Shown in pieces: positions 8,019-49,663 of a stretch of 64,000 bases of DNA. How positions within the stretch are numbered: position 1 is the first letter of the stretch; each line of letters starts with the position of its first letter. Where the stretch lies: the NCBI GenBank assembly GCA_963811165.1, contig CAWEQH010000010.1:288001-352000 (forward strand), written 5' to 3'. The notes below the pieces were generated by a model. It was not told the origin of the DNA. It saw nothing but the letters and a program-made list of their open reading frames with translations, and did no database searches. The position numbers and the translations under genes were made by a program. Source of the DNA: an uncultured Nitrospiraceae bacterium (GTDB lineage: Bacteria; Nitrospirota; Thermodesulfovibrionia; Thermodesulfovibrionales; UBA6898).

Positions 8019-8144
8019 TATTTCTCATTTTAGATTGTGGAGTTTCTTTTCGCAAGCTCATGATTTGCAGTCATAATAGATTGGGCTATAATGTGCCTAG
8101 GCGAAAAAGACGAGCAATATCTATGCGGGGAAGGAGAGTACGGC

Positions 8145-8459
8145 ATGAATAGGAACATGAAATGGGGTCTTTTGGGCAGCGTGGTCGTCATTTGCGTTCT
8201 CATTTTTATATTTACACAGGGTTCACCCAACGGGGCGGAACTTTTTAGGAGCCAAGGGTGCATCAGTTGCCACAGCTTTAAGGGGAAGGGCGGAGAGCTA
8301 TGCCCTGATCTAACTGGAGTTACCGGTAGAAGAAGCGACAGTTGGATACGTGTACAGATAAAAGACTCCAAAAAACATAATCCGAACTCAAGAATGCCCA
8401 GCTTCGGGCATCTTTCCTACAGGGAGATAAGCGCAATAATCCGTTATTTGAAGTCCTAA
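8145..8459 (+). CDS. Monoheme class I cytochrome c
   Basis: N-terminal hydrophobic anchor, CISCH, P.DL and SRMP distal Met. Confidence 0.85.
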   Translation: MNRNMKWGLLGSVVVICVLIFIFTQGSPNGAELFRSQGCISCHSFKGKGGELCPDLTGVTGRRSDSWIRVQIKDSKKHNPNSRMPSFGHLSYREISAIIRYLKS

Positions 8460-8746: not shown

Positions 8747-9913
8747 ATGAAAGATTTCTTGGATGGTCTTCCTGCAGAGCCTGGAGAATCCCTTGAGAGG
8801 CTCGCAAGAAGTGGTCTGTCGCGCAGAGATTTTCTTAAGTTCTGTACGGGCGTGGCGGTTATGCTGGGATTGCCCATAGGCATGGGCTCCAAAATCGCTG
8901 AGGCTGTAATGAGCGCCAAAAGGCCTCCTGTGCTTTGGCTGTCTGCCCAGGAGTGCACGGGCTGTACCGAGAGCCTCTTAAGAACAAATCATCCTACTCT
9001 TGACAAGTTGATCCTTGAGCTTATCTCTCTTGATTATCATGAAACCCTTGAGGCCGGGGCAGGGCATCAGGCCGAGGCCGCCCGGGTAAAGTCTATGCAG
9101 GAGAATAAGGGAAAATATATATTGGTGGTAGACGGCTCCATCCCTGTTAAGGACGGCGGAATATACTGCAAGATAGGCGGTAAAACCGCTCTTTCACTCT
9201 TAGAAGAAATGGGGTCCCAGGCAGCGGCAGTCATAGCCATCGGTTCCTGTGCCTCCTGGGGCGGCGTGCCTTCTGCAGATCCGAATCCGACCGGCGCTAC
9301 CCCGGTTCATGAAATCTTCAAGAGCAAGGGCATAAAAACACCTGTAGTAAATATTCCGGGATGTCCTCCGAACGGATATAATTTCCTGTCCACGGTACTG
9401 TACTTTGTGACGTTCAAAAAGCTTCCTGAGCTTGATGATCTAGGTCGTCCCAAATTTGCTTATGGCAGACTTATTCACGACAATTGCGAACGAAGGCCGC
9501 ATTTCGATGCGGGCAGATTTGCAAAAGAATTCGGCGATGAGGGCCACAGAAAAGGATATTGCCTTTACAAGCTCGGATGCAAAGGCCCTGAGACATATAA
9601 CAACTGCCCGACACTGCTCTTCAACGACGTCGGGGCCGGGGCATGGCCGGTAGGCACAGGACATCCTTGCTTCGGATGTTCAGAAAAAGGCGTCGGCTTC
9701 TCGGCAGCTCTATTCAGCCCGGCAAAGCTTAAAGACACAACGCCTTTTATAGGCTTCCCCGGTATAGCTGAGGATAAAGGCAAAGGTGCGACAATTGCTG
9801 GCGTTGCAGTGGTTGCAGGTCTTGCAGGGGCAGCGATAGGCGCTGGGGTTTCGACGGCAAAAAAACTCGACAAAGCGGATAAAGATAAGACCGGACCAAA
9901 GTCTAAGGAGTAG
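8747..9913 (+). CDS. hybO: Hydrogenase-2-type small subunit
   Basis: Tat signal SRRDFLK; ECTGCTES, GSCASWGG, PGCPP, HDNC, CLYKLGCKGP, WPVGTGHPCFGC; C-terminal TM. Confidence 0.95.
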   Translation: MKDFLDGLPAEPGESLERLARSGLSRRDFLKFCTGVAVMLGLPIGMGSKIAEAVMSAKRPPVLWLSAQECTGCTESLLRTNHPTLDKLILELISLDYHETLEAGAGHQAEAARVKSMQENKGKYILVVDGSIPVKDGGIYCKIGGKTALSLLEEMGSQAAAVIAIGSCASWGGVPSADPNPTGATPVHEIFKSKGIKTPVVNIPGCPPNGYNFLSTVLYFVTFKKLPELDDLGRPKFAYGRLIHDNCERRPHFDAGRFAKEFGDEGHRKGYCLYKLGCKGPETYNNCPTLLFNDVGAGAWPVGTGHPCFGCSEKGVGFSAALFSPAKLKDTTPFIGFPGIAEDKGKGATIAGVAVVAGLAGAAIGAGVSTAKKLDKADKDKTGPKSKE

Positions 9914-9916
9914 GCC

Positions 9917-10882
9917 ATGGATATAAAAAGAAGAGATTTCTTGAAGATAGTTGGAGGCGGGGGTCTGCTCCTGGCGTCAAATATTGCGCCGGCGCTGGCG
10001 ATTTCAAGGCCTCCTAAGAGCATGCCTCCGGAAGCGGTCGGGATGTTTTACGATTCGACTATCTGCATAGGTTGTAAGGCCTGCCAGCACGCCTGTAAGC
10101 AGTTCAATGAAATGCCGGCAGAACATACCATCAGACCTCCGGATATGATGGATGAACTTTGGGACAACCCGGCAGACCTTTCGGGAAAGACACTGGAGAT
10201 CATTAAGGCTGTTAAGACAGGCCCGGGAGAGGAGAAGAACATAGACTTTGCATTTGTAAAGAGGAATTGCATGCATTGTGTTGATCCCGCATGCGTTTCG
10301 GCATGTCCGGTGTCGGCATTAAGGAAAGATCCCAAAACGGGTGTCGTGACTTACAATAAGAAGGCATGCATAGGCTGTCGTTACTGCCAGATGGCATGCC
10401 CGTTCAATATCCCTAAGACAGAGTGGGACAAGGCATTTCCTCAGATACGAAAGTGCGAGTTCTGCAACCATAGGTTTGCCGAGGGCAAATACTCGGCATG
10501 CTGTGAGTTCTGTCCTACAGGGGCTTCTATCTTCGGTCCCGCAAAGGACCTCCTCGCGGAAGCCAGGAAAAGGTTGACCCTCAGGCCCGGCGATTATTAC
10601 AACTATCCTCTGCAGACGGTTAACTCTAAGGACAAGATGCGACAGAAGGTAGCCCCGTACGTTAATCACGTTTACGGAGCAACCGAGGCCGGAGGCACGC
10701 AATTCATCATGCTGTCGGCTCTACCCTTTGACAGTCTCGGCATGCCCCCTCTGTCGGACAAACCTGATGCGGCATTTTCCGAAGGAATACAGCATACGCT
10801 TTATAAGGGGATGATTTTGCCCGCTGCAGTACTTGCCGGTCTCATGTTTGCGGCATACAAGAACACCAAGAAAGATGAATAA
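9917..10882 (+). CDS. hybA: Hydrogenase-2 Fe-S subunit
   Basis: Tat signal RRDFLK, four 4Fe-4S Cys motifs, GGTQ and QHTLYKG C-terminal TM. Confidence 0.93.
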   Translation: MDIKRRDFLKIVGGGGLLLASNIAPALAISRPPKSMPPEAVGMFYDSTICIGCKACQHACKQFNEMPAEHTIRPPDMMDELWDNPADLSGKTLEIIKAVKTGPGEEKNIDFAFVKRNCMHCVDPACVSACPVSALRKDPKTGVVTYNKKACIGCRYCQMACPFNIPKTEWDKAFPQIRKCEFCNHRFAEGKYSACCEFCPTGASIFGPAKDLLAEARKRLTLRPGDYYNYPLQTVNSKDKMRQKVAPYVNHVYGATEAGGTQFIMLSALPFDSLGMPPLSDKPDAAFSEGIQHTLYKGMILPAAVLAGLMFAAYKNTKKDE

Positions 10883-10912: not shown

Positions 10913-12049
10913 ATGAGCGAACCCAAACCGATAGGAGGAAAAATAATCACAGCGCCGTTTCTTTTCTTTTCTGCGCTGGCGGCGATCGCCGTGATATTGA
11001 TTATCAAGCGTTTCATCTTCGGACTCGGCAACGTGACAAACCTGAACGACGGCTATCCCTGGGGAATCTGGATAGCCTATGATGTCGTAGTAGGAACGGC
11101 CTTTGCCTGCGGCGGATACGCAATCGCGCTTCTTGTATATATTTTTAACAAGGGGGAGTTTCACCCGTTCGTCAGGTCGGCCCTGCTGGCCAGCGCCTTC
11201 GGCTATACACTCGCCGGCGTGTCGATCTTCTTTGACGTAGGACGTTACTGGCAGGCGTATAACCTGTTTCTTCCTTGGTATTCGCAATTGAATTCGGTGA
11301 TGTTTGAGGTTGCCTTCTGCATCTCGCTGTACATCTTTGTATTATGGATAGAGTTTTCACCTTCGTTTATGGAGTGGATGAGCAAGAAGGGACTTGTCAA
11401 GACAATGAATAGGCTGATGTTTGTCTTCATTGCCATAGGAGTACTCCTCCCTACCATGCACCAGTCCTCACTGGGAACTCTTATGGTCGTAACCGGGCGT
11501 AAATTGCATCCTTTATGGCAGACGCAGATGATCCCGCTGCTTGCGTTGATTTCTGCCATAACGATGGGATACTCGATCGTTATCTTTGAAGCCATCGTCT
11601 CGTCGGTTTCTCTAAAAAGAGAGATAGAGGTGCCCCTGCTGTCCAAGCTTTCGGCACTGATCCCCTGGCTTATCGGGGCCTATCTTGTGGTGCGGTTCGG
11701 CGATCTTTTGTACAGAGGCCAACTGGGATTAGCCTTCACCAGCGGGTTTAAAGGCATAATGTTCATTATCGAAAATGTTCTTTACATAGTTCCATTGGTT
11801 ATCCTGTCATCCGCAAGCAGCAGGATGAGGCCAAAGATGCTGTTCGTTTCTGCCGTCATTATGCTTCTGGCGGGAGCGGTTTACCGTTTCGATACATTCC
11901 TTATAGGGTTCGACCCTGGCCCGGGCTGGCACTATTTCCCCTCGGCACAGGAAACGCTTATAACAGTGGGGCTGATATCTATGGAGATTGCCGGTTATAT
12001 GGTTATCGTTAAGAAACTACCTGTGCTGCCCGATTTGCGGCATGCATAA
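10913..12049 (+). CDS. hybB: Hydrogenase-2 membrane subunit (NrfD family)
   Basis: GYPWGIWIAYDV and PTMHQSSLG motifs; about 10 TMs. Confidence 0.93.
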   Translation: MSEPKPIGGKIITAPFLFFSALAAIAVILIIKRFIFGLGNVTNLNDGYPWGIWIAYDVVVGTAFACGGYAIALLVYIFNKGEFHPFVRSALLASAFGYTLAGVSIFFDVGRYWQAYNLFLPWYSQLNSVMFEVAFCISLYIFVLWIEFSPSFMEWMSKKGLVKTMNRLMFVFIAIGVLLPTMHQSSLGTLMVVTGRKLHPLWQTQMIPLLALISAITMGYSIVIFEAIVSSVSLKREIEVPLLSKLSALIPWLIGAYLVVRFGDLLYRGQLGLAFTSGFKGIMFIIENVLYIVPLVILSSASSRMRPKMLFVSAVIMLLAGAVYRFDTFLIGFDPGPGWHYFPSAQETLITVGLISMEIAGYMVIVKKLPVLPDLRHA

Positions 12050-12067: not shown

Positions 12068-13768
12068 ATGGCAAAAAGAATAGTTGTTGATCCCGTAACA
12101 AGAATAGAGGGACATCTGAGGATTGACTGCGAAGTTGATGGCGGCAAAGTCACAAACGCCTGGTCTTCCGGGCAGATGTGGCGAGGGATAGAGGTTATCC
12201 TCAAGGGTCGCGATCCGCGCGATGCGTGGCTATACACCCAGCGCTTCTGCGGCGTCTGAACGACGGTCCACGCACTGGCTTCAGTGCGTTCGGTAGAAAA
12301 CGCCCTGGGGATGGAGGTCCCCGTGAACGCCCAATATATAAGGAACATGATGATGGGCGCTCACGCAACACATGACCATATCGTCCATTTTTATCATCTT
12401 GCCGCGCTCGATTGGGTGGATATCGTCTCGGCCCTCAAGGCCGATGCAAGAGCGGTTTCGAACCTGGGCCAGAAGCTTTCTCCATGGACGGGGAACAGCT
12501 ATAGCGAGGTAAAGGCATCTCAAGACAGGCTGAAGACTTTTGTGGGTTCAGGCCAGCTCGGTGTGTATGGAAGCGGCTACTGGGGCCATCCGGCCATGAA
12601 GCTTTCGCCCGAAGTGAACATGCTTGCGGCCCATCATTATCTTCAGGCGCTTGAGTACCAGAGGGAGATTAATAAAGTCGTCGCAATTCTCGGTTCCAAG
12701 ACCCCTCATATACAGAACGTGGCCGTGGGGGGAGTTTCCAATGCCATCAACCTAGACAGTCCTTCGACTCTTAATATGGAAAGACTGTATTATATCAAGA
12801 CGCTCATCGACAAGGTCGGAGACTTCGTTGAAAATGTTCTTCTCGTCGACACAGCTGCGGTCGCGGCATTCTACGCGGAGTGGACGAAGTATGGTGCGGG
12901 TGTGACAAATTACCTTTCAGTTCCGGATATGCCGATGGATACGAAGGGGACGACCTTTGCGCTTCCCGGCGGTTACATTCCGAACGGAGACATAGGAAAG
13001 TTCCAGGCGATCAAGAGTTATCAGGACCCTTTCTTCAGGGATAGCGTCAAAGAGAGCATCAAGCATTCCTGGTACGACGGCGACTGGGACCGCCACCCGT
13101 TTGAAGAAGATACTGTCCCAAAATATACCGACTTTCAGGACAAGGGAAAGTATTCATGGGTCAAGTCGCCGACCTTCAAGGGGAAACCTGCACAGGTGGG
13201 GCCGCTGGCGAATGTCCTTTGTATGTTTGCGGCAGGTCACGAGCCTACAAAGAAATACGCGACGAAGATGCTCGATACAATAAGTGCAGTAGCAGGTACT
13301 AAAGTCGGATTGGCGGCACTGCATTCGACTATTGGGAGAATCGGTGCAAGGTCGATCAGGTGCGCGGTCCTCTTCGATACCTTAAAATCGCAGTGGCAGG
13401 CGCTTGTAGAGAATATCTCGAAGGGAGATGTCAAGACCTTCAACCATCCGACTTTCCCGGCCGGGGAACAGAGGGGCTATGGCTTTCATGAGGCCCCAAG
13501 GGGCGCGCTCTCCCATTGGATCGTGATCAAGGACGGCGTAATAAAGAATTATCAGGCCGTTGTCCCGTCGACCTGGAATGCAGGTCCCAGAAATAGCGAA
13601 GAGGCACTCGGGCCGTACGAGGCTTCCCTTATCGGAAACCCGGTGATAGATGCCGAAAAACCTCTCGAGGTTCTGCGGACGGTGCATTCTTTTGACCCCT
13701 GTCTTGCCTGCGCGATCCATATGGTAGATAAGACCAACAATGAAATCGTGAAGGTTAAGGCGGTATGA
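12068..13768 (+). CDS. hybC: Hydrogenase-2-type large subunit, 566 aa, with putative selenocysteine at residue 64 (TGA 12257-12259)
   Basis: ORFs 12068-12259 and 12284-13768 are in the same frame and join as TRIEGH...[15 protein letters not shown]-terminal [12 protein letters not shown]; hairpin just after the TGA. Confidence 0.9.
12257..12294 (+). promoter_or_regulatory. Putative bacterial SECIS element of hybC
   Basis: 8-bp perfect stem ACGCACTG(12270-12277)/CAGTGCGT(12282-12289) with GCTT loop; the loop G follows 18 nt after the UGA. Confidence 0.75.
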
Positions 13769-13775
13769 AGACGGC

Positions 13776-14297
13776 ATGAACGTTCTTGTGCTGGGAATAG
13801 GCAACGTCCTCATGATGGACGACAGCGTGGGTGTGCGCGCAATCGATGAGCTTGAGAGAAGATACCATTTTCCCGATGAGGTGGAACTTCTGGACGGCGG
13901 GACATCCGGTATCGAACTTCTTTCATATTTCGGCGACCGAGATTATTTGATTATCATCGATGCACTGAAATCCGGGTCCGCTCCGGGGACGGTTGTGAGG
14001 GTGGAAGGGGATGATGTCCCCGCCAGATTTATGACGAGGATATCGCCCCACCAACTCGGCTTGTCCGACGTACTTGCTGCGGCCACAATTTCCGGCCGGC
14101 TCCCGGAAAATTTGGTGCTCTTCGGGGTCGAGCCAAAAACAGTAGAACTCGGCCTAGGACTTTCCAGTGAGGTTCGGGCAGCCCTCGACAAAGTCGTTGG
14201 GGTAGTAATAGAAGAACTCAGACGTATCGGCTATGCAGGAGAGCCGCTTGAGACCGTATCGTCCGGGAAGACACTATGGGAGAAGGTGCAGGGGTAA
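13776..14297 (+). CDS. hybD: Hydrogenase maturation endopeptidase
   Basis: LGIGNVLM.DD..G, DGGTSG, IIDA and SPHQLGL motifs. Confidence 0.93.
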   Translation: MNVLVLGIGNVLMMDDSVGVRAIDELERRYHFPDEVELLDGGTSGIELLSYFGDRDYLIIIDALKSGSAPGTVVRVEGDDVPARFMTRISPHQLGLSDVLAAATISGRLPENLVLFGVEPKTVELGLGLSSEVRAALDKVVGVVIEELRRIGYAGEPLETVSSGKTLWEKVQG

Positions 14298-19281: not shown

Positions 19282-20606
19282 TGTTGTCAACAAATAGAGT
19301 TGTCCGGTTTTAGAGCAGATAAACTGTCCGGTCCGTAGCTAGTTGATATCAGGCTGCTTTTTTGTTTAGTTTTGAGACCTCCTTCCCCTTGGAATTAAAG
19401 GCTATCAATTTTCTGTGCCCATGGAATATTGCTAGGTTGCCGTTTGGATAGCGATGGACACGGACCTTTACTTTGACATAGTGAAAGCGATATTTATCGG
19501 CTGGAATCTGAAGGGTCAGGGCATCGAATTTGACACAGTTGTTGTTGCCGACCGTCCGCTCATATTGTTCGCAGAGGATGTCTTGAAGAGGTGTTCCGGC
19601 CCAAGGGACAAACATACTGGCAGGCTCCTCAGCGGATACGGCAAATTCATCGTTAAAGGCGGGAAGATACACATCACGGATATAGGCATTGGCCTGTTTC
19701 ATCTCAGTGATGCCGGCCATGGCAAGTTCCTTTACAAGGCGCTCCTGATGAGTGCGGAAGGCGCGTTCAGAGCGTCCTCGGGCCTCAGGGGAATAGGCCG
19801 GGATCATCTCTATCCCTAACTGCCTCATGGCACGGCCAAATTGTGTCAGATTCTCCTTATCCACCTTCCCCCCAGCCTCTGGGGTATTCCAGTAGTGGCT
19901 GCCGCGATCCGTGTACAGTGAGGCAAATACTCCATGCTCGACGATCACCTCACTAACTCCCTGAAAACTGCTCTGAGTTCCTTCTTCATCGATAAAAAAC
20001 ATCGAGTAATGTCCATTGCTGGCATCATCCATTGTTACAATCAGATCCCATAACTTCCCAGGCACCCACTCATGTGTGGAGCCGTCCTGATGCAGCATCA
20101 TGCCAATATACGGAGCTCTTGGACGCTGTCTCCGGTGGGTTCCCTTTCTCGAATCCTTATGCACAAGTCCCTTGCCCTGAAGAGTATTCTTTACCCAGGT
20201 GTAGCTCCTCATGCCCTCATGAGCCCGCCTGTACCAACTGTAAAAGTGCTTAACCGTCAATCCCTGGTACCTGCGGCTGTATAAATCTGCCAGGGCCATT
20301 ACCTCATCAACAGGCGCACTGCGGTGCGATATCTGTCCTAAACGCCTATCAATAAGTCCCTCCATCCCCTGCTCCTCATATCGAACCAGATATCGACGGT
20401 ACGTCCGGTCGCATACTCCAAGCAGCCTCGCCGCTTCCTCCTGCGTCAATCTCCCCCTTTGACATCCCTCATATGCTTCCTCAAATCTCATCTTCCGTAC
20501 CTCCTGTAGTAGTGCTGTCCTCTTCATCAATGGCACCTCCGTGCCATCCAATCTTAACCGGACAGTTTATGTGCTACAGATACGGACAGTTTATTGGCTC
20601 GCTACA
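19282..20606 (-). mobile_element. Insertion sequence, IS1202 family (ISNCY/IS481-like), 1325 bp
   Basis: TGT...ACA ends, imperfect terminal IRs each with two (AAC/AGT)TGTCCG motifs, 16-bp flanking direct repeat, single DDE transposase. Confidence 0.88.
19349..20527 (-). CDS. DDE transposase
   Basis: N-terminal HTH (LTQEEAARLLGV), HQDGS.H.W, YTDRGS and SPEARGRSER. Confidence 0.92.
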   Translation of the reverse strand: MKRTALLQEVRKMRFEEAYEGCQRGRLTQEEAARLLGVCDRTYRRYLVRYEEQGMEGLIDRRLGQISHRSAPVDEVMALADLYSRRYQGLTVKHFYSWYRRAHEGMRSYTWVKNTLQGKGLVHKDSRKGTHRRQRPRAPYIGMMLHQDGSTHEWVPGKLWDLIVTMDDASNGHYSMFFIDEEGTQSSFQGVSEVIVEHGVFASLYTDRGSHYWNTPEAGGKVDKENLTQFGRAMRQLGIEMIPAYSPEARGRSERAFRTHQERLVKELAMAGITEMKQANAYIRDVYLPAFNDEFAVSAEEPASMFVPWAGTPLQDILCEQYERTVGNNNCVKFDALTLQIPADKYRFHYVKVKVRVHRYPNGNLAIFHGHRKLIAFNSKGKEVSKLNKKAA

Positions 20607-30786: not shown

Positions 30787-31890
30787 ATGAGACAAATACG
30801 CATTGCAATCGCCGGCGTCGGAAATTGCGCAAGTTCGCTTGTTCAGGGCATCGATTATTATAGAACCATCAAGGGGAATAGTGCCCAGCGCTCGCTGGGG
30901 TTGATGCACTATAACCTCGGCGGTTACTCTCCCGGCGATATTCAAATCGTCGCCGCCTTCGATATAGACAAGAGAAAAGTGGGCAAACCTGTAACCGATG
31001 CCATAGCGAGTGCGCCGAACTGCACAAAGAAATTTCATGCGATATCCAGACGTTCTCCAGCGAAAGTCCTTATGGGTAATGTGCTGGACGGTGTGGCCGA
31101 ACATCTCAGCAATTACCCCGAGGAGAGAAGATTTATAATAGCCCGCAAGAGGCCTGCAAATGTTTCTAAGGTGCTGAAAGAAACGGGGGCGGAGATTCTT
31201 CTAAATTACCTGCCTGTGGGATCCGAAAAAGCCACCGCTTATTATGCCGAGGAATGCCTCAAATCAGGCGTCAGCCTTATCAACTGTGTCCCTGTTTTTA
31301 TCGTCTCAAACAGGGTATGGGCCAAGAGATTTAAAGATAGGGGGATACCTGTAATAGGCGATGACGTGAAAAGCCAGATAGGCGCTACGATTATTCACCG
31401 TTGTCTGGCAAAACTTTTCGAAGACAGAGGAGTAAAGATCGACAGTACCTACCAACTTAATGTGGGTGGCAACACTGACTTTCTGAATATGCTCAACGGC
31501 ACGCGCCTTCGGATGAAAAAGATATCCAAGACCGAAGCGGTGCAGTCACAGCTTCAGGTACCTCTGAATCTTGAAAATATCCATATAGGTCCTTCCGATT
31601 ATATTCCATGGCTGAATGACAACAAGGTTTGCTTTCTACGAATGGAGGGCAGGGGGTTCGGCAATGTCCCCATGCACCTCGAAATGAGATTGTCTGTCGA
31701 GGATTCTCCTAACAGCGCAGGGGTCGTCATCGATGCCATACGCTGCTGCAAAATCGCTCGCGACAGAAAAGTGGGAGGCGTCCTTGTCTCGCCGTCTGCA
31801 TATTTCATGAAACATCCTCTTACACAGTTCCCGGATGAGGTAGCAAAGGCAATGGTAGAGGACTTTATCGACGGCAAGTTAGAAAGATAA
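30787..31890 (+). CDS. ino1: Myo-inositol-1-phosphate synthase
   Basis: GVGNCASSLVQG, NYLPVGS, GDDVKSQ.GAT, GGNTDF and DSPNSAG. Confidence 0.93.
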   Translation: MRQIRIAIAGVGNCASSLVQGIDYYRTIKGNSAQRSLGLMHYNLGGYSPGDIQIVAAFDIDKRKVGKPVTDAIASAPNCTKKFHAISRRSPAKVLMGNVLDGVAEHLSNYPEERRFIIARKRPANVSKVLKETGAEILLNYLPVGSEKATAYYAEECLKSGVSLINCVPVFIVSNRVWAKRFKDRGIPVIGDDVKSQIGATIIHRCLAKLFEDRGVKIDSTYQLNVGGNTDFLNMLNGTRLRMKKISKTEAVQSQLQVPLNLENIHIGPSDYIPWLNDNKVCFLRMEGRGFGNVPMHLEMRLSVEDSPNSAGVVIDAIRCCKIARDRKVGGVLVSPSAYFMKHPLTQFPDEVAKAMVEDFIDGKLER

Positions 31891-31892
31891 AA

Positions 31893-32462
31893 TTGCTCGG
31901 AAACAAGTTCGGACATTTTTTAGACCGGCCGCTTGGAAATCTGGCACGAGCAGTGCCTTTTCACCCCAATACCCTGACAGTGGCCGGATTCCTGCTAACC
32001 GTGATGGCGTCTTTGGTTCTTGTCCGGAGTCTTGCTTTCGGGGGAGTCCTCGTAATTATAGGCGGACTTTTCGATGTTCTTGATGGCGTAGTCGCTCGCG
32101 TCAACAAAAAACAGACAAGATTCGGAGCGTTTCTTGATTCTGTGCTCGATAGGTTTTCCGACGCATTTATACTATTGGCAGTGGGCCTGAACCTTTTCAG
32201 ACACGGCAATGTGCCGGGAATGGCACTATGTGTCTTAACTCTCGTCAGCTCTTTCTTGGTGAGCTACGTGCGGGCGAGGGCGGAGGGGCTTGGGAAAAAT
32301 TGCAAAGAGGGTCTCATGGAAAGACCGGAAAGAATAGTATTGTTTTCTTTGGGGGCCATTACCGGATTCATGGTCCCCATCCTATGGATACTGTTCATAT
32401 TGACGCAGTTTACCGTATTTCAGCGAATGTATCATGCCCTAAAGATGATGGGCCGTGAATAA
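31893..32462 (+). CDS. CDP-alcohol phosphatidyltransferase (PIP-synthase-like)
   Basis: PN.LT, DxxDGxxAR...GxxLDxxLD, SYVRARAE and ERPER. Confidence 0.88.
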   Translation: MLGNKFGHFLDRPLGNLARAVPFHPNTLTVAGFLLTVMASLVLVRSLAFGGVLVIIGGLFDVLDGVVARVNKKQTRFGAFLDSVLDRFSDAFILLAVGLNLFRHGNVPGMALCVLTLVSSFLVSYVRARAEGLGKNCKEGLMERPERIVLFSLGAITGFMVPILWILFILTQFTVFQRMYHALKMMGRE

Positions 32463-48342: not shown

Positions 48343-49663
48343 ATGTTCGAAAATATAAGCGAAAAGTTAGATTCAATACTGAAGAAGCTGAAGGGGAAGG
48401 GTCTCCTCAAAGCGGAGGATATCGAGACCGCACTGAAAGAAATCAGACTCGCCCTGCTTGAGGCAGATGTCCATTTCAAAGTCGTCAAGGATTTAATCGA
48501 AAGGATCAAGTCAAAGGCCGTTGGAGAAGAAGTGCTGGAGAGTCTCACTCCGGGACAGCAGGTAGTCAAGATCGTTAACGCTGAACTTTGCGAACTTCTC
48601 GGAAGATCACAGAGTAAAATTGCACTTTCGCCGAACCCTCCTACAGTAATCATGATGATAGGTCTCCAGGGCTCGGGCAAGACCACTACCGCGGCAAAGC
48701 TGGCGAGGCACTTCAAGAAGGAGGGAAGACGGCCGTTACTTGTTGCGTGCGACCTCCAAAGACCCGCAGCCATCGACCAGTTGCGTACCCTGGGGAAACA
48801 ATTGGATGTTGGAGTCTACTCATCCACTGACACAAAAGACCCTGTTGCCGTCGCCCTCGAATCGCTGAGCAAGGCAAAAGTTGAAGCACACGACATAGTG
48901 ATAATAGATACCGCGGGCAGACTCCACATCGACGAGTCCCTCATGGGCGAGTTGAAGAACATCAAGGAAAAAGTCTCTCCGAAGGAAACACTGCTCGTTG
49001 CCGATTCAATGACGGGACAGGATGCCGTGACGATAGCAAAACATTTCAATGAACAGATCGGAATCGACGGTATTATACTTACCAAGATGGATGGAGATGC
49101 GAGGGGCGGCGGCCGCCCTGTCGATCAGGGCCGTTACGCAGAAGCCGATCAAGTTCATCGGGGTGGGCGAAAAAATAGATGCGCTTGAGCCTTTTTACCC
49201 CGACAGAATCGCATCGAGAATCCTTGGAATGGGTGACATGCTGAGTCTCATCGAACAGGCCCAGCAGTCTTTCGACCAAAGAGAAGCTGAAACTCTCCAG
49301 AAAAGGATTATCGAGGATTCATTCACATTCGACGACTTAAGGGAGCAATTGAAGAAGATCAGGAGTATGGGGCCTCTTGAAAGCATTCTGGGGATGATCC
49401 CCGGGTTCAATAAGGTCAAGAACGTGAACGTCGACGAAAGGGAGTTCGTAAAGATTGAGGCGATCATCAGTTCCATGACGAGGAAGGAAAAGACAAATCA
49501 TAACCTTCTGAACGGGAGCAGGAGGAAAAGGATAGCGTTGGGCAGCGGGACAAACGTTGCCGATGTAAACAGGGTCATAAAACAGTATGTTGAACTGAGG
49601 AAGATGCTGAAGATGTTCAAAGGCAAGAAGAACCTGAAACTCCCTAAGATGTTCCCCTTTTGA
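48343..49663 (+). CDS. ffh: Signal recognition particle protein, split by a +1 frameshift near 49111
   Basis: [14 protein letters not shown] and [10 protein letters not shown] in one frame; AALSI...GEK...[13 protein letters not shown] and M-domain in the next frame. Confidence 0.9.

Follow-up and report, generated by a model that had tools for sequence, protein, structure and literature searches.

The in-frame TGA at codon 64 of hybC, the large-subunit gene of a hydrogenase 2 (Hyd-2)-type enzyme, is in all likelihood read as selenocysteine (Sec). The gene lies in the window (the whole stretch of 64,000 nucleotides analysed, from an uncultured Nitrospiraceae bacterium), and Sec is the best reading of its TGA because the codon is conserved, a hairpin goes with the TGA, the Sec machinery is complete and the hybOABCD synteny is kept; from the same evidence we infer Sec insertion and favour a natural Ni-(mu-Se)-Fe enzyme, as an earlier sequence-only reading had proposed. 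This hybC would extend an already predicted CXXU kind of hydrogenase to a large Group 1c-type clade, and the enzyme very probably works like Hyd-2 and not like the classical HysA type; the purpose of the selenium is the part held with least certainty.

The hybC frame runs from ATG 12068 to the terminal TGA at 13766–13768, and translation gave one internal stop, TGA 12257–12259, just as had been claimed from the sequence alone. The elements concerned are as follows.

12068..13768, + strand: hybC, large subunit, 566 aa with read-through at codon 64 (profile search and E. coli HybC alignment)
12248..12250, + strand: TGC codon of Cys61, terminal Ni ligand; TGA instead in two related HybC genes (L251, L325)
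12257..12259, + strand: in-frame TGA, codon 64, predicted Sec (ORF and alignments)
12270..12289, + strand: SECIS-like hairpin, 8-bp Watson–Crick stem, 4-nt loop, conserved specifically with TGA
13700..13711, + strand: C-terminal motif with Cys545 and Cys548, both Cys codons (translation)

Codon 64 stands in the context R-F-C61-G-V-*-T-T-V-H and aligned with Cys64 of E. coli Hyd-2 and Cys79 of Hyd-1, i.e., the second N-terminal ligand, where the TGA had been placed before; the C-terminal motif is D-P-C545-L-A-C548, all-Cys as claimed, with no UxxC. The read-through product aligned to E. coli HybC at 59% identity and a single gap, vs 43% for the Hyd-1 large subunit; a C-terminal extension of 15 residues follows His551. 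The hydrogenase 2 large subunit model was the best for HybC (876 bits, under its 969 cut-off); the HysA-type model scored low (357 of 780 bits). A single-sequence AlphaFold2 model (pLDDT 33.6) was set aside; a promoter/terminator scan gave signal near chance, and a search of viral contigs gave no match. Among the sequencing runs compared as contigs, none contains half of the window's words; in one RNA run, contigs cover 174 bases of hybD only.

The genes around hybC are given below; hybO, hybA, hybB and hybD match NCBIfam Hyb models and contain only terminal stops, which bears out the earlier statement that the remainder of hybOABCD is intact.

8091..8459, + strand: gene for a small c-type cytochrome, upstream of hybO; uncertain whether linked to the complex
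8747..9913, + strand: hybO, small subunit carrying a Tat signal; start probably ATG 8747, ORF from TTG 8732; 52% identity to E. coli HybO
9917..10882, + strand: hybA, 4Fe-4S electron relay subunit (PRK10882, 427 bits, cut-off 263)
10913..12049, + strand: hybB, integral membrane quinone-reactive subunit (PRK10881, 542 bits, cut-off 450); 48% identity to E. coli HybB
13776..14297, + strand: hybD, maturation endopeptidase (TIGR00072 and TIGR00140 over cut-off)

The order is hybO (Tat)-hybA-hybB-hybC, without the cytochrome b HyaC; the best PDB and NCBIfam matches of the large subunit are Hyd-2, and in the tree it falls with E. coli HybC, apart from HyaB. The enzyme is accordingly described as Group 1c-like, a class assigned by E. 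coli references and synteny. The marks of HysA (Group 1a) were not found: there is no C-terminal Sec, Asp103 is kept in 52/52 TGA-type proteins, and HybO retains Pro306 like E. coli HybO and HyaA. This proline we take to be a marker of a [3Fe-4S] medial cluster. Group 4 CXXU enzymes differ as well, the present sequence being Hyd-2-type and set in a hyb operon instead of an ion-translocating Group 4 cluster. The small c-type cytochrome gene was found in 4 of 22 TGA-type loci, many loci being truncated. With E. coli Hyd-2 HybOABC (Group 1c; PDB 6EN9/6EHQ; PMC5902676) the window shares the gene order hybO-A-B-C-D, the ligands 61/64/545/548, Glu14, Asp103, Arg478, Asp543, His551 and the 15-residue tail, with the identities given above for HybC, HybO and HybB; unlike E. 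coli, it has TGA at codon 64 with a downstream hairpin and lacks hybE, hybF and hybG after hybD. By likeness to E. coli Hyd-2, for which H2:menaquinone activity and proton pumping are known (available part of PMC5902676), the same activities may be expected here. Apart from HybC, no Group 1 large subunit and no Cys-type backup turned up in the genome; the only other hydrogenase found is an all-Cys Group 3-like cluster (G000:C1:8074-12108, 424-aa large subunit). The hypD gene is intact, with hypF- and hypE-like genes adjoining; an apparent TAG in hypD proved to be the stop of the upstream gene.

HybC homologues with TGA at codon 64, the search that the sequence-only reading had suggested as a check, were readily obtained: 16 of 17 full-length orthologues (73–96% identity; 60 related genomes) carry it and one has Cys; among the best 80 loci of the GTDB collection codon 64 is TGA in 22 and Cys in 58, the TGA-type ones belonging to Nitrospirota, Desulfobulbia, one Desulfobacca MAG, one Rokubacteria MAG and others. 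A second set of 84 loci (80 metagenome and 4 pattern matches; 79 classifiable) gave 31 CxxU, 2 UxxU and 46 CxxC, hence TGA in 33/79; the five unclassed loci gave no motif match that could be used, and one of these has TGA at 64. In the loci examined the stop at codon 64 was always TGA, never TAA or TAG. One alignment alone holds 54 distinct TGA-type genes of the clade. A degenerate TGA-motif pattern hit 117 of the 251 genomes in the window's class, a count that pools HybC and a paralogue (below), with 0 for the reversed control; across the phylum to which one Desulfobulbaceae MAG belongs it hit 4 of 401 genomes, and in the class of that MAG 21 of the best 30 loci have TGA. The closest named record to the window's HybC is from a Thermodesulfovibrionales MAG (96% identity), which makes a Nitrospirota of this order the most likely host. 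None of the best 120 database proteins carries U or X, and 25 of the 120 are 485–494-aa pieces without the N-terminal Ni motif; surveys of Thermodesulfovibrionia and Desulfobulbia would therefore overlook this uptake hydrogenase or place it in the wrong class.

The hairpin starts 11 bases 3' of the TGA, and its loop (12278–12281) opens with G at +19; it is SECIS-like in this G-first loop, and SelB binding is predicted. A conserved downstream hairpin had also been named as a check, and a Watson–Crick stem of at least 6 bp was present in 41 of 54 TGA vs 0 of 61 Cys genes (kin that are not independent), and in a second set in 25 of 33 vs 0 of 46. All pairs of the fixed 8-pair stem are present in 30 of the 54 distinct TGA genes vs 0 of 61 Cys genes; as a control, among 547 true TGA stops that end long ORFs, only 11 have a stem of at least 8 bp. 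Third-position conservation at codons +4 to +10 was 0.78 in TGA genes vs 0.56 in Cys genes, with flanks at 0.54–0.67 in both. The TGA-specific hairpin argues for selection. Folding energy was not beyond shuffles (z −0.63); pair covariation was seen in 0 of 8 pairs in the window's clade and was weak in a second clade (1 pair; score reached by 14 of 500 shuffles). With G–U pairs allowed, several Cys-type genes form 7–9-bp stems in another register (+23). The loop lies at +19 in hybC vs +19 to +24 in six other predicted selenoprotein genes of the genome and +27 in SelD; among the TGA clades the register differs (+19, +24, +28).

Trees were built with FastTree and, for smaller sets, IQ-TREE. With the motif and the hairpin-coded residues left out of the alignment, IQ-TREE forces four changes of state among 50 HybC, and 6–8 with denser sampling. 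A single clade for all TGA-type HybC was rejected (AU tests, p 2.7e-6 and 0.0026); this gives no count of origins, since denser sampling reveals nested Cys revertants. Cys genes nest within TGA clades and the Cys revertant L295 retains a decayed +19 hairpin, so reversions from Sec to Cys occur; revertant genomes retain selB and a tRNA-Sec-family gene. The three hairpin registers favour more than one gain of Sec.

Two related HybC genes have TGA at both 61 and 64 with the hairpin as in the window: L251 (2681-2692) and L325 (G1170:C63), at 90% and 86% identity, respectively. They are independent records. The place of L251 inside the CxxU clade suggests that UxxU was reached stepwise from CxxU; for Group 4 such a course was not demonstrable (PMC13582414). 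A separate Group 1 paralogue of about 48% identity (nearest PDB 3MYR) is UxxU or CxxU in many relatives; its family comprises small subunit, large subunit, cytochrome b and protease (L102-L110, L153-L166), its N-terminal motifs are UxxU in 13 distinct cases and CxxU in 7, and it has its own hairpin at +24. In one genome (G004) it stands directly behind a CxxU hyb operon; a search of the window's genome for it found none. Because the ligand and the subgroup are other ones and Asp103 and the small-subunit Pro are retained, an origin independent of the C-terminal UxxC enzymes is indicated, and the suggestion of an independently evolved selenium hydrogenase is upheld. A wider proposal, rather unlikely as a whole, is that N-terminal Sec is widespread among the Group 1 uptake hydrogenases of this Nitrospirota class, gained several times with different SECIS elements, with CxxC passing to CxxU and UxxU under one SECIS (L251, L325), and with bridging Se preventing the slow-to-reactivate Ni-A state without the classical proton-transfer penalty; if true, nature would have two designs for using selenium in hydrogenases, this one beside the classical position.

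The proposed working follows Hyd-2. SelB would bind the downstream hairpin and deliver Sec-tRNA(UCA), so that residue 64 becomes Sec; Hyp proteins and HybD would assemble an active site of the usual Hyd-2 build apart from Sec64, which by homology would occupy one of the two Ni–Fe bridging positions while Cys61, Cys545 and Cys548 remain sulfur. HybO would export the dimer via Tat, and HybA/HybB would carry electrons derived from H2 in the periplasm to the quinone pool, as judged by homology to E. coli Hyd-2. All first- and second-sphere residues are identical to Hyd-2; Glu14, Arg59, Cys61 and Arg478 are, like Asp103, invariant in the 52 TGA-type proteins. L70, Y167 and I425 showed only a loose link to Sec, none being consistent across all four TGA groups; Tyr167 occurs in both large TGA clades and in 4 of 59 Cys-type proteins, and the link of Ile425 is looser still. 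The S-oxygenated bridging Cys proposed for Ni-A would be the second N-terminal Cys; a literature search on which bridging Cys is oxygenated gave no result. The Hyd-2 ligands are given as Cys61, 64, 546 and 549 (PMC5902676, in part), and the Sec of the CXXU motif is predicted to bridge Ni and Fe (PMC13582414).

As the leading explanation for the selenium, at the bridge it could ease the reversal of oxygen damage with sulfur kept on the Cys545–Glu14 proton path, a step that on its own stands slightly below even odds. The idea follows from the proposal that Ni-A carries an S-oxygenated bridging Cys (available text of PMC7324405), together with the finding that Se at the Glu-adjacent Cys penalises proton transfer (portions of PMC8020662 and PMC11212049). 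The engineered C79U form of Hyd-1 retains activity and, at 13%, leads a set of four variants (PMC8020662, available portion); against oxygen protection stand its near-inactivity at 10% O2 (same portion) and the Cys reversions in genomes where selB and a tRNA-Sec-family gene persist. Sec may also be inserted without catalytic benefit, through Cys/Sec drift in selenoprotein-rich anaerobes or as a selenium gate on hydrogenase synthesis. This account is compatible with Sec and competes only with the functional step; it is quite plausible, if not the probable one. The 6–8 changes of state with Cys genes inside TGA clades, the want of any active-site residue that co-varies with Sec and the selB retained by revertants all agree with it, but TGA and hairpin are maintained over 75–96% protein identity in two phyla, the three registers suggest repeated invention, the Group 1 paralogues have undergone the same N-terminal change, and this genome yielded no Cys-type backup.

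For decoding, selA, selB and selD all scored over their profile cut-offs in the genome and tRNA-Sec(UCA) lies at C8:443233-443330, so that the Sec machinery whose confirmation had been advised (selA, selB, selC, selD) is complete; selD itself contains an in-frame TGA. Of 70 related genomes, 69 yielded selA; in a comparison by type that covered 50 of the 80 loci, the gene turned up in 20 of 21 genomes with TGA vs 24 of 29 with Cys. Being near-universal, it is consistent with Sec and does not discriminate. A genome-wide read-through scan returned 103 candidates from 29,215 TGA frames, mostly noise, and the hybC TGA itself failed its filters. Six candidates selected by eye correspond to selenoprotein types already known: two formate dehydrogenases and peroxiredoxin, DsbC-like, DUF1573-like and DsrE-like proteins, named by sequence resemblance and, for several, by the motif list in the available part of PMC13188914. 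These and two further genes of interest are:

G000 C8:341464, C10:105466, C4:672127, C1:386934, C10:825549, C4:730755: six further probable selenoprotein genes
G000:C4:471037-471126 (L175:1038-1127): selC*-type tRNA-Cys(GCA), 90 nt, long variable arm, U discriminator before CCA
G000:C10:697737-698951 (L176:738-1952): CysRS paralogue, 404 aa, without anticodon-binding domain, one Zn-ligand Cys replaced

The selC*-type tRNA scored 57.3 bits on the tRNA-Sec model. Such genes are recorded in Nitrospirae/Thermodesulfovibrio (PMC5389517, available part), and both anticodon types recode UGA in a SECIS-dependent manner, which was named as a limit of the predictions in PMC13582414. If this tRNA (tRNA-ReC-type), with SelB and the same hairpin, read UGA mainly as Cys, the product would be an ordinary four-Cys Hyd-2. 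That outcome is improbable: the genome has a true tRNA-Sec(UCA), selA and selD, a search for a second selB in it found none, and the selC* query drew no match across family f22 (21 of 21 genomes) or in 11 of the 21 genomes from the window's family, although in either family the tRNAs may be unassembled or diverged. Since CxxU HybC is common in f22, the hybC TGA does not appear to depend on selC*. The CysRS paralogue was not accepted as cysS*, the Zn-ligand Cys being missing and linkage to selC* absent. With Sec as the main reading, the selC*-type tRNA is a possible fallback that may supply Cys at codon 64 under Se shortage. A CMD-family gene comes after this tRNA at L175; homologues of the tRNA occur in many relatives, with much longer variable arms in L187, L188 and L197. 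A second tRNA-Sec-like gene with UCA anticodon, 5' A and U discriminator (opal selC* type) was seen at L334:757-849 in genome G860, the HybC of which has reverted to Cys. An ARAGORN tRNA-Cys(ACA) at G000:C4:644207-644298, poorly paired and within a coding region, is probably spurious.

An error of sequencing or assembly, or a pseudogene with a nonsense mutation, is refuted as the source of the TGA by its conservation at the same codon in the 16 orthologues and 22 wider loci, in dozens of independently assembled genomes with frames otherwise open. The TGA-specific hairpin as a sign of selection and a 235-base contig of public run X1 (possibly the source sample) that covers codon 64 with zero differences also speak against it; apparent frameshifts elsewhere in the assembly speak for it. 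Indel errors are suggested there by ffh (window 48343–49663), which is split over two frames, and by one tuf copy (G000:C8:104227-105426), which is split over three ORFs.

CXXU and UXXU Group 4 [NiFeSe] hydrogenases were predicted from sequence by Takano et al. 2026 (PMC13582414; no biochemistry), where two Group 1 and one Group 3 CXXU sequences are cited from Baltazar et al. 2011 (in the part of that text available). The surprise of the present find is lessened by both, and the question of an earlier description, raised in the sequence-only reading, has a divided answer: an N-terminal CXXU was already predicted in print, whereas the literature search, most subscription papers lying outside its coverage, found neither the Group 1c CXXU clade described nor a natural enzyme of this type characterised. 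Common to the Group 4 enzymes and the window's enzyme are Sec predicted at the second N-terminal bridging Cys, a SECIS with G in the loop, a mosaic Cys/Sec distribution and the caveat of a co-occurring tRNA-ReC; unlike the Group 4 ion-pumping complex, the window's enzyme is a periplasm-facing, quinone-linked uptake enzyme of Group 1c type within a large clade.

Classical [NiFeSe] HysAB of Desulfovibrio/Desulfomicrobium (Group 1a; PDB 1CC1, 2WPN) shares with it a UGA-encoded Ni ligand and a periplasm-facing heterodimer. In HysAB the Sec is C-terminal and terminal, in the window predicted as N-terminal and bridging; the window also retains the canopy Asp, replaced by Ser in NiFeSe hydrogenases (available portion of PMC8020662), and the medial-cluster Pro, and its partners are the membrane HybA/HybB. 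Engineered E. coli Hyd-1 C79U has the same ligand position and illustrates that Sec there can yield an active enzyme; unlike the window's, it is artificial, on an O2-tolerant Group 1d scaffold, with the activity and O2 response given above (same portion). That portion also mentions purported natural substitutions at the other bridging Cys and calls the terminal C-terminal Sec position special. In the literature examined the natural [NiFeSe] hydrogenases characterised have Sec at this terminal C-terminal position; a natural bridging-Se enzyme, its Cys revertants and its UxxU relatives would form matched pairs for testing Se per ligand.

Elsewhere in the window, an ISNCY-family transposase was noted at 19349–20551, and at 30787–32462 an inositol-3-phosphate synthase gene adjoins a phosphatidylinositol phosphate synthase-like gene.
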